From the NCBI RefSeq assembly GCF_003334255.1, contig NZ_QOWU01000243.1: 429 bases of DNA. One strand, given 5' to 3'. The notes beneath the pieces were generated by a model that was not told the DNA's origin, did no database searches, and was given only the letters and a program-made list of their open reading frames with translations. Positions within the stretch are counted from its first letter, which is position 1. The number at the start of each line of letters is the position of its first letter. Source of the DNA: Escherichia coli (GTDB lineage Bacteria; Pseudomonadota; Gammaproteobacteria; Enterobacterales; Enterobacteriaceae). The position numbers and the translations under genes were made by a program. This document shows, one piece after another, positions 139 to 429 of the stretch.

Positions 139-214
139 TGGTGGAGCTATGCGGGATCGAACCGCAGACCTCCTGCGTGCAAAGCAGGCGCTCTCCCAGC
201 TGAGCTATAGCCCC
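139..214 (-). tRNA. alaT: tRNA-Ala (anticodon UGC), 76 nt with encoded CCA
   Basis: Reverse complement of 139..214 is GGGGCTATAGCTCAGCTGGGAGAGCGCCTGCTTTGCACGCAGGAGGTCTGCGGTTCGATCCCGCATAGCTCCACCA. The anticodon loop is CTTTGCACG (anticodon TGC = plus-strand gca at 179..181). The G3:U70 alanine identity pair is present (G at plus 212, U from plus-strand a at 145). It has a T-arm GGTTCGATCC and an encoded CCA at 139..141. It matches the E. coli rrn spacer tRNA-Ala as I recall it. The gene symbol is a family label (alaT/alaU/alaV). Confidence 0.96.
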
Positions 215-256
215 ATAACATGTAGTTAAAACCTCTTCAAATTTGCCGTGCAAATT
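215..256 (-). other. Inter-tRNA spacer between tRNA-Ile and tRNA-Ala (42 nt)
   Basis: It is bounded by the tRNA-Ile 3' CCA (257) and the tRNA-Ala 5' G (214). It is short, AT-rich and non-coding, as expected for co-transcribed spacer tRNAs processed by RNase P and 3' nucleases. Confidence 0.85.

Positions 257-258
<2 letters not shown>
238..258. repeat. Tandem pair of the self-palindromic octamer CAAATTTG separated by 5 nt, abutting the tRNA-Ile 3' end
   Basis: CAAATTTG occurs at 238..245 and 251..258 with spacer ccgtg between them. Each octamer is its own reverse complement, so the pair can also fold as an 8-bp hairpin with a 5-nt loop in the precursor RNA. The copy at 251..258 overlaps the final CA of the tRNA-Ile CCA end. 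Confidence 0.4.
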
Positions 259-333
<75 letters not shown>

Positions 334-401
334 GTAGAGGTTTTACTGCTCATTTTCATCAGACAATCTGTGTGAGCACTGCAAAGTACGCTTCTTTAAG
401 G
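334..401 (-). other. Internal transcribed spacer segment between 16S rRNA 3' end and tRNA-Ile (68 nt)
   Basis: It lies between the 16S terminus (402) and the tRNA-Ile 5' end (333). The transcript reads AAGAAGCGTACTTTGCAGTGCTCACACAGATTGTCTGATGAAAATGAGCAGTAAAACCTCTAC. There is no ORF and no independent promoter signature. This position corresponds to the 3' strand of the 16S processing stem in enterobacterial rrn operons (established knowledge). Confidence 0.85.
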
Positions 402-429
402 TAAGGAGGTGATCCAACCGCAGGTTCCC
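402..429 (-). rRNA. rrs: 16S ribosomal RNA, 3'-terminal fragment (gene continues beyond the window's high-coordinate edge)
   Basis: Reverse complement of 402..429 reads GGGAACCTGCGGTTGGATCACCTCCTTA, the universally conserved 3' end of bacterial 16S rRNA, including the anti-Shine-Dalgarno CCUCC (plus-strand ggagg at 405..409). Only 28 nt are present, so the call rests on this terminal signature and on the operon context. Confidence 0.93.

Follow-up and report, generated by a model that had tools for sequence, protein, structure and literature searches.

In the precursor transcript of the Escherichia coli rRNA operon, C75 and A76 of tRNA-Ile, together with the first 19 nucleotides of its trailer, are predicted to fold into a 9-bp hairpin. 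Because spacer positions +21 to +30 are predicted to pair with leader positions -12 to -3 directly past this hairpin, the hairpin, the leader-trailer helix and the tRNA-Ile acceptor stem would meet in a tight three-way junction, in which the hairpin is nested within the leader-trailer helix and the predicted linkers measure 2, 2 and 1 nt. Structure prediction and covariation make this structural part alone (hairpin, leader-trailer helix and junction) very probable. The best explanation of the whole is that this conserved precursor structure also delays or orders the release of tRNA-Ile, a reading to which we would give an even chance. The hairpin itself is a variable ITS helix of an ordinary kind, and we have found no description of the tRNA-Ile-specific three-way junction in the literature.

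The window, that is, the whole 429-nt stretch of DNA that was analysed, carries on its minus strand an Ile/Ala-type 16S-23S spacer of E. coli. Complete E. coli genomes contain the sequence at 100% identity; all 5,426 of them yielded a match, which covered at least 80% of the window in 5,408. Features were placed using ARAGORN and Rfam, and all RNA features are read in the direction of the transcript (minus) strand. They are as follows.

1-71: pre-23S leader (Rfam StyR-44), placed by Rfam.
139-214, minus strand: tRNA-Ala(UGC), placed by ARAGORN/Rfam; a neighbour outside the junction.
215-226, minus strand: predicted single-stranded tail ACUACAUGUUAU, lying between the junction and tRNA-Ala, from folding.
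227-236, minus strand: 3' arm of the leader-trailer helix, spacer +21 to +30, AGAGGUUUUA, from inverted repeat I2, folding, covariation and the swap control.
238-258, minus strand: RNA hairpin of 9 bp containing both CAAATTTG octamers, from the repeat finder, folding, covariation and shuffles.
257-333, minus strand: tRNA-Ile(GAU), its encoded CCA (259-257) included, placed by ARAGORN/Rfam; contributes its acceptor stem as the third junction helix.
336-345, minus strand: 5' arm of the leader-trailer helix, tRNA-Ile leader -12 to -3, UAAAACCUCU, from inverted repeat I2, folding, covariation and the swap control.
402-429, minus strand: 3' end of 16S rRNA, placed by Rfam; context.

An earlier note on this DNA had drawn attention to two copies of an octamer, 5 nt apart, one of them including the last two bases of the CCA, and had proposed that they can pair as a hairpin over the tRNA 3' trailer. 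The two copies do lie at 238-245 and 251-258, positions 257-258 are A76 and C75 of tRNA-Ile, and the predicted fold sequesters just these two bases and the first 19 nucleotides of the trailer. The inverted repeat is one base longer per side than the octamers: the repeat finder gives 9-nt arms (238-246 and 250-258; I3), 100% complementary, around a 3-nt loop. Read along the transcript, the 5' arm (258 to 250) is C75 A76 AAUUUGC, the loop (249 to 247) is ACG and the 3' arm (246 to 238) is GCAAAUUUG. The look of a direct repeat arises in E. coli because the arm CAAAUUUG is self-palindromic; the repetition as such is incidental. What the octamers reflect is an RNA hairpin in the precursor transcript of the rRNA operon rather than a repeat at the DNA level. 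The octamer did not survive comparison with relatives as a repeated motif: once these were aligned, the pairing proved to be kept, whereas the stem sequence has changed outside Escherichia, Citrobacter, Klebsiella and some Enterobacter. A search of the complete E. coli genomes showed that the short hairpin is confined to the spacer.

The evidence for the hairpin from the single E. coli sequence is moderate to strong, and the comparative evidence is decisive. A perfect hairpin of at least 9 bp appeared in 14 of 20,000 dinucleotide-preserving shuffles of the spacer (0.07%), and a hairpin of at least 6 bp that starts in the CCA arises by chance in 1.9% of shuffles. Folded by itself, the spacer has a free energy of -9.5 kcal/mol (z = -2.35), a value reached by six of 200 shuffles.

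The leader (23 nt), tRNA-Ile and the spacer were also folded together, with the cloverleaf either enforced or free. Both MFE structures have the same architecture, with the acceptor stem intact and the hairpin present, and the identical three-way junction is predicted in either case; the hairpin is thus compatible with the acceptor stem, with which the earlier note had allowed for a conflict. The hairpin begins two nucleotides past the acceptor stem, and a single nucleotide (237) separates it from the trailer arm at 227-236. The leader-trailer helix comprises 10 bp; its outermost pair has a probability of 0.57, and the other nine have probabilities of 0.93-1.0. With the cloverleaf enforced, the free energy is -45.8 kcal/mol, compared with -35.7 kcal/mol when the hairpin region is forced open, a cost of about 10 kcal/mol. 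Elsewhere in the window the repeat finder reported a 23-nt inverted repeat (66-88 and 377-399; I1) that is 74% complementary and would allow pairing between the 16S 3' trailer and sequence that overlaps the spacer boxA (the reverse complement of 63-75 is TGCTCTTTAAAAA); the repeat may be no more than a likeness between the spacer boxA region and the 5' leader from which the 16S processing stem is built.

About 30 distinct Ile-Ala spacers were assembled as relatives from a genome scan (20 loci), chromosomal rrn fragments in a plasmid collection and one metagenomic contig, the Ile/Ala operons of Yersinia, Vibrio and Pasteurellaceae lying outside the sample. Three length classes can be recognized. 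Spacers of 35-43 nt are present in E. coli, Citrobacter amalonaticus, Klebsiella pneumoniae, four Enterobacter species, Franconibacter, Pectobacterium, Serratia, two Xenorhabdus species and the metagenomic contig L037, an independent lineage in which the same three-way junction is found. Every sampled spacer of this class opens with a hairpin of 5-9 bp, the 5' arm of which starts at C74, C75 or A76 in all lineages but one. The stem sequences vary (CAAAUUUGC, CAAAUUCGC/GCGGAUUUG, CAAAUCUGU/GCAGAUUUG, CAACUC/GAGUUG, CCACUU/AAGUGG (CCACUUC/GAAGUGG) and CCAAUUC/GAAUUGG), and the identical E. coli stem is capped by loops that differ at all three positions (ACG, ACC, GAU and GAA). Spacers of 105-142 nt are present in Salmonella, Kosakonia, Klebsiella, Enterobacter hormaechei, Citrobacter freundii, C. 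portucalensis, Proteus and Providencia; here the slot is occupied by an irregular, covarying rod of about 75 nt, the base of which is built from the same AAUU.../...AAUU arms as the short form. Both forms exist within each of the genera Klebsiella, Enterobacter and Citrobacter. The remaining spacers, of 10-23 nt, belong to some Xenorhabdus operons, Neptuniibacter, Oceanospirillum, a Piscirickettsiaceae genome and Aeromonas, and all of them are without the hairpin, which is therefore dispensable. Throughout Enterobacterales this slot is occupied by a variable stem-loop, either as stubs of 5-9 bp or as the rod of about 75 nt; the hairpin of E. coli is its short form and looks like the basal stub of the long rod. 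The leader-trailer helix is weak in C. freundii, C. portucalensis, Oceanospirillum and the Piscirickettsiaceae genome.

Two operons of Xenorhabdus sp. BG5 (L007 and L008) have 20-nt spacers whose trailer arms differ (GGTTCAAT vs GGTGACAT) and an identical leader, and the leader-trailer helix is therefore weaker in one copy. A genome labelled as a Bacillota MAG (L004) and one labelled as an uncultured Desulfovibrio (L013) contain an Ile-Ala spacer identical to that of E. coli. In the former, the E. coli sequence changes within tRNA-Ala to another 3' half (GGCCAGCGGTTCGAACCCGCTAAGCTCCACCA), which reads as Firmicute-like, and more tRNA genes follow; this looks like chimeric assembly or contamination. 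Several records of the plasmid collection, among them CP125156.1, NZ_OL790812.1 and NZ_AP026896.1, are 4-5 Mb in size or small rrn-only fragments. These are chromosomes or misassemblies and are misleading as plasmid data. A feature of L023-L034 (for example, L024:406-494) matched no Rfam family, is absent from E. coli, and suggests a specific recognition site.

Covariation was assessed in two alignments. In the first (A1), an unbiased MAFFT alignment of 12 short-form precursors from eight genera, RNAalifold itself predicts both the leader-trailer helix and the hairpin. Over 12 pairs, 95.1% of the cells are paired, compared with 78.9% in shuffles, and none of 500 shuffles was as high; nine of the 12 pairs have changed on both sides, and pairing falls to 37-57% when the register is slid. 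The leader-trailer helix shows covariation at five of seven aligned pairs. In the second alignment (A2), of nine long-form precursors, compensatory change is seen at 16 of the 29 pairs of the rod, and 93.1% of the cells are paired, a value again reached by none of 500 shuffles. An alignment-free control gave native leader x spacer duplexes an average of -9.7 kcal/mol, compared with -5.8 kcal/mol for swapped partners, and in most taxa no diverged partner matches the native duplex. The same procedure applied to tRNA-Ala yielded no signal for a leader-trailer helix (-5.8 kcal/mol native vs -5.3 kcal/mol swapped), and the helix is therefore specific to tRNA-Ile and not a by-product of AU-rich composition.

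The E. coli tRNA-Ala leader (ACUACA) can pair with its own trailer (UGUAGU; 216-226 vs 127-136), a complementarity that is not conserved across other genera. The sequence that follows tRNA-Ala partly matches the complement of the tRNA-Ile leader (125-135 vs 332-342; inverted repeat I4), and this too is not conserved elsewhere. In the other spacer type the first tRNA is tRNA-Glu (L038-L047), the leader and trailer of which are complementary in Serratia (AUCGGA/UCCGAU) and Pasteurella (CAUCUUUA/UAAAGAUG) and possibly, through G.U-rich pairing, in E. coli and Klebsiella. The swap control for tRNA-Glu, which comprised 10 sequences, is weak; these spacers hint that the first tRNA after 16S may generally be enclosed by a helix. 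In the Glu-type spacer of Salmonella Senftenberg (L039:277-330), about 38 nt are inserted right past the tRNA-Glu CCA; beyond them the tRNA 3' end occurs once more (AGGGGACGCCA), and the E. coli-type trailer CUUGCUGG comes last. The arrangement looks like the outcome of an insertion that duplicated its target.

That the complementarity is a coincidence in an AT-rich spacer, as the earlier note had thought equally possible, or that the hairpin is a terminator or a pause signal, is next to negligible. The sequence is AT-rich, and two octamer matches with at most one mismatch were obtained in 10 of 200 shuffles of the window (5%), but perfect hairpins of at least 9 bp were far rarer in shuffles, as described above, and coincidence is rejected by the covariation and the shuffles. 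As for a terminator, the stem is AU-rich and no U-tract directly follows it; neither an intrinsic terminator (a G+C-rich stem plus a U-tract) nor a promoter was found in the window. Positions 238-258 also form a near-perfect palindrome of 21 bp at the DNA level, which might bind a dimeric protein or act as a cruciform or replication-slippage hotspot. We consider such an element very improbable, since relatives keep the complementarity and not the sequence, the reverse of what is expected of a protein-binding site, and since the palindrome is located within a heavily transcribed operon with no promoter-like site found. Moreover, G.U pairs are tolerated only on the transcribed strand: when they are counted, the short hairpin is 91.5% paired on that strand compared with 79.7% on the other, a comparison that does not discriminate for the rod.

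The main rival is a neutral relic, which we regard as a serious possibility but an improbable one. It supposes that an ancestral Enterobacterales rod of about 75 nt was reduced by deletion (slippage across the arms) to a paired stub with no function, and that selection acts only on the rod and/or on the leader-trailer helix. The coexistence of short and long forms with common basal arms in Klebsiella, Enterobacter and Citrobacter is consistent with this, as are the full loss of the hairpin from 10-23-nt spacers that retain the leader-trailer helix and the absence of the rod from all 5,426 complete E. coli genomes. The short forms themselves weigh against it, because among them the loop varies at all three positions while the identical stem stays intact, a compensatory change from U-A to C-G has occurred in Enterobacter asburiae and E. 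ludwigii, and pairing with the CCA is common to the stubs of Serratia, Pectobacterium, Xenorhabdus, Franconibacter and L037, which are unrelated in sequence. An RNase III site, in which the rod, or in E. coli a coaxial stack of the stub and the leader-trailer helix (about 19-20 bp), would be cut as a duplex and would release tRNA-Ile as the 16S and 23S stems release rRNA, seems unlikely. It draws on the strong covariation of the rod, an irregular helix of about 29 pairs, on the resemblance of the leader-trailer arrangement to rRNA processing stems, and on the raised rrn spacer signal seen in arrays upon loss of RNase III (PMC3082872). However, the E. coli helices are only 9-10 bp each, their coaxial stacking is an assumption, and sequence homology to other elements excised by RNase III is lacking. 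In addition, the published RNase III map lists rrn sites 5' and 3' of 16S and 3' of alaT, gltT, 23S and 5S, with none between ileT and alaT, the rrn operons having been excluded from the refined set (PMC6212723).

Other identities were considered for the hairpin and the rod. At the gathering score, no Rfam family matched 215-258 or the rod, and a sub-threshold match to HPnc0260 turned out to be an antisense tRNA T-arm. The rod is not a dispersed palindromic repeat (REP, ERIC or MITE), as the plasmid collection has a single copy of it per Ile/Ala rrn operon and E. coli has none; nor is it a detectable homologue of the 23S IVS, given that no sequence similarity was detected outside the Ile-Ala spacer. 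The K-12 'rsl' spacer loop, which we took to be a candidate identity of the long rod, was rejected because no match to the rod exists in any of the 5,426 complete E. coli genomes, and our search of the literature found no use of the term 'rsl'.

Several known systems resemble the structure in part. In the RNase III processing stems of 16S and 23S, as here, the sequences flanking the mature RNA pair and the pairing is kept by covariation, but those stems exceed 20 bp, whereas the stem described here has 7-10 bp and encloses a tRNA plus an extra hairpin. The two-turn duplex of about 20 bp that is typical of an RNase III stem is not reached by the 10-bp helix and 9-bp hairpin of E. coli, and only the rods of other genera approach it. 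Among named features, the V2 helix of the cyanobacterial ITS comes closest, a stem-loop between tRNA-Ile and tRNA-Ala that is variable in length and sequence and exists only in some operons (PMC5658200); the order in that ITS is D1-D1', D2, D3, tRNA-Ile, V2, tRNA-Ala, Box-B, Box-A, D4 and V3 (PMC5658200). The Enterobacterales slot likewise has a comparatively supported stem-loop, and among taxa and operons it contains nothing, a stem of 5-9 bp or about 75 nt. This likeness is one of description. The helix described here has two further traits, a start in or next to the CCA and nesting within the leader-trailer helix. The 23S IVS are extended stem-loops that are excised by RNase III and are known from Salmonella, Citrobacter, Klebsiella, Proteus and Providencia but not from Escherichia. 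The rod, too, is an extended irregular stem-loop in the rRNA precursor, and its taxon distribution is similar to that of the IVS. The two differ in location and have no sequence similarity, and excision is a property known of the IVS.

The release of tRNAs from Ile/Ala operons is usually described only in terms of RNase P, RNase E and exonucleases. RNase E requires single-stranded RNA; RNase P base-pairs with the 3' RCCA through its RNA and touches the single-stranded leader with its protein subunit. In E. coli, tRNA 3' maturation starts with an endonucleolytic cut a few nucleotides past the CCA in AU-rich sequence, followed by exonucleolytic trimming, and RNase P generates the 5' end (PMC4681348). 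Mapped 3' cuts (carets) include CCAA^UUU^AU for tRNA-Gln and CCA^A^UU for tRNA-Tyr, which the trailer described here, CCA followed by AAUUUG, resembles (PMC4681348, Table S4). Such RNase E-type trailers need a single-stranded site, whereas here the motif is predicted to lie within a 9-bp stem worth about -10 kcal/mol. tRNA-Ile is absent from the mapped sites in the dRNA-seq Table S4 (PMC4681348), possibly on account of its three identical gene copies, and no cleavage map or experiment for this spacer was found in the literature on tiling arrays, the RNase III map, the dRNA-seq Table S4, RNase P, Salmonella RNomics and TRIC-seq.

On our preferred reading, that of a conserved precursor structure that delays or orders tRNA-Ile release, the junction would bury in duplex the AU-rich, CCA-proximal trailer, C75 and A76, and leader positions -3 to -12, and in this way might delay the cuts by which tRNA-Ile is freed, or set their order. 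Before RNase E-type cleavage, 3' exonucleases or RNase P could act, the junction would have to open or be cut as a duplex, and the long rods are of sufficient length to be plausible RNase III substrates. An ordering role in 3'-end processing is plausible from the predicted structure. A wider proposal, which we advance with considerable doubt, is that the first tRNA after 16S is packaged by a dedicated 'tRNA processing stem', in which the leader-trailer helix and a CCA-sequestering hairpin or rod would form a three-way junction with the acceptor stem and serve during rRNA transcription as a checkpoint fixing the order of the RNase III, RNase E and RNase P cuts, or would protect the precursor ends. 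Such a stem, so far uncatalogued, would be to a spacer tRNA what the processing stems are to 16S and 23S rRNA, and it would be conserved throughout Gammaproteobacteria.

Should access to the tRNA-Ile ends depend on the junction, the orderly release of spacer tRNAs from the cell's most heavily transcribed RNA would be explained, and a functional meaning would be given to the variable helices that serve as taxonomic markers, such as the cyanobacterial V2 and the enterobacterial variable blocks. If the hairpin is only the stub of a larger helix, it would still clarify why Ile/Ala spacers in Enterobacterales come in discrete lengths, with about 20, about 40 or about 105-140 nt between the two tRNAs.
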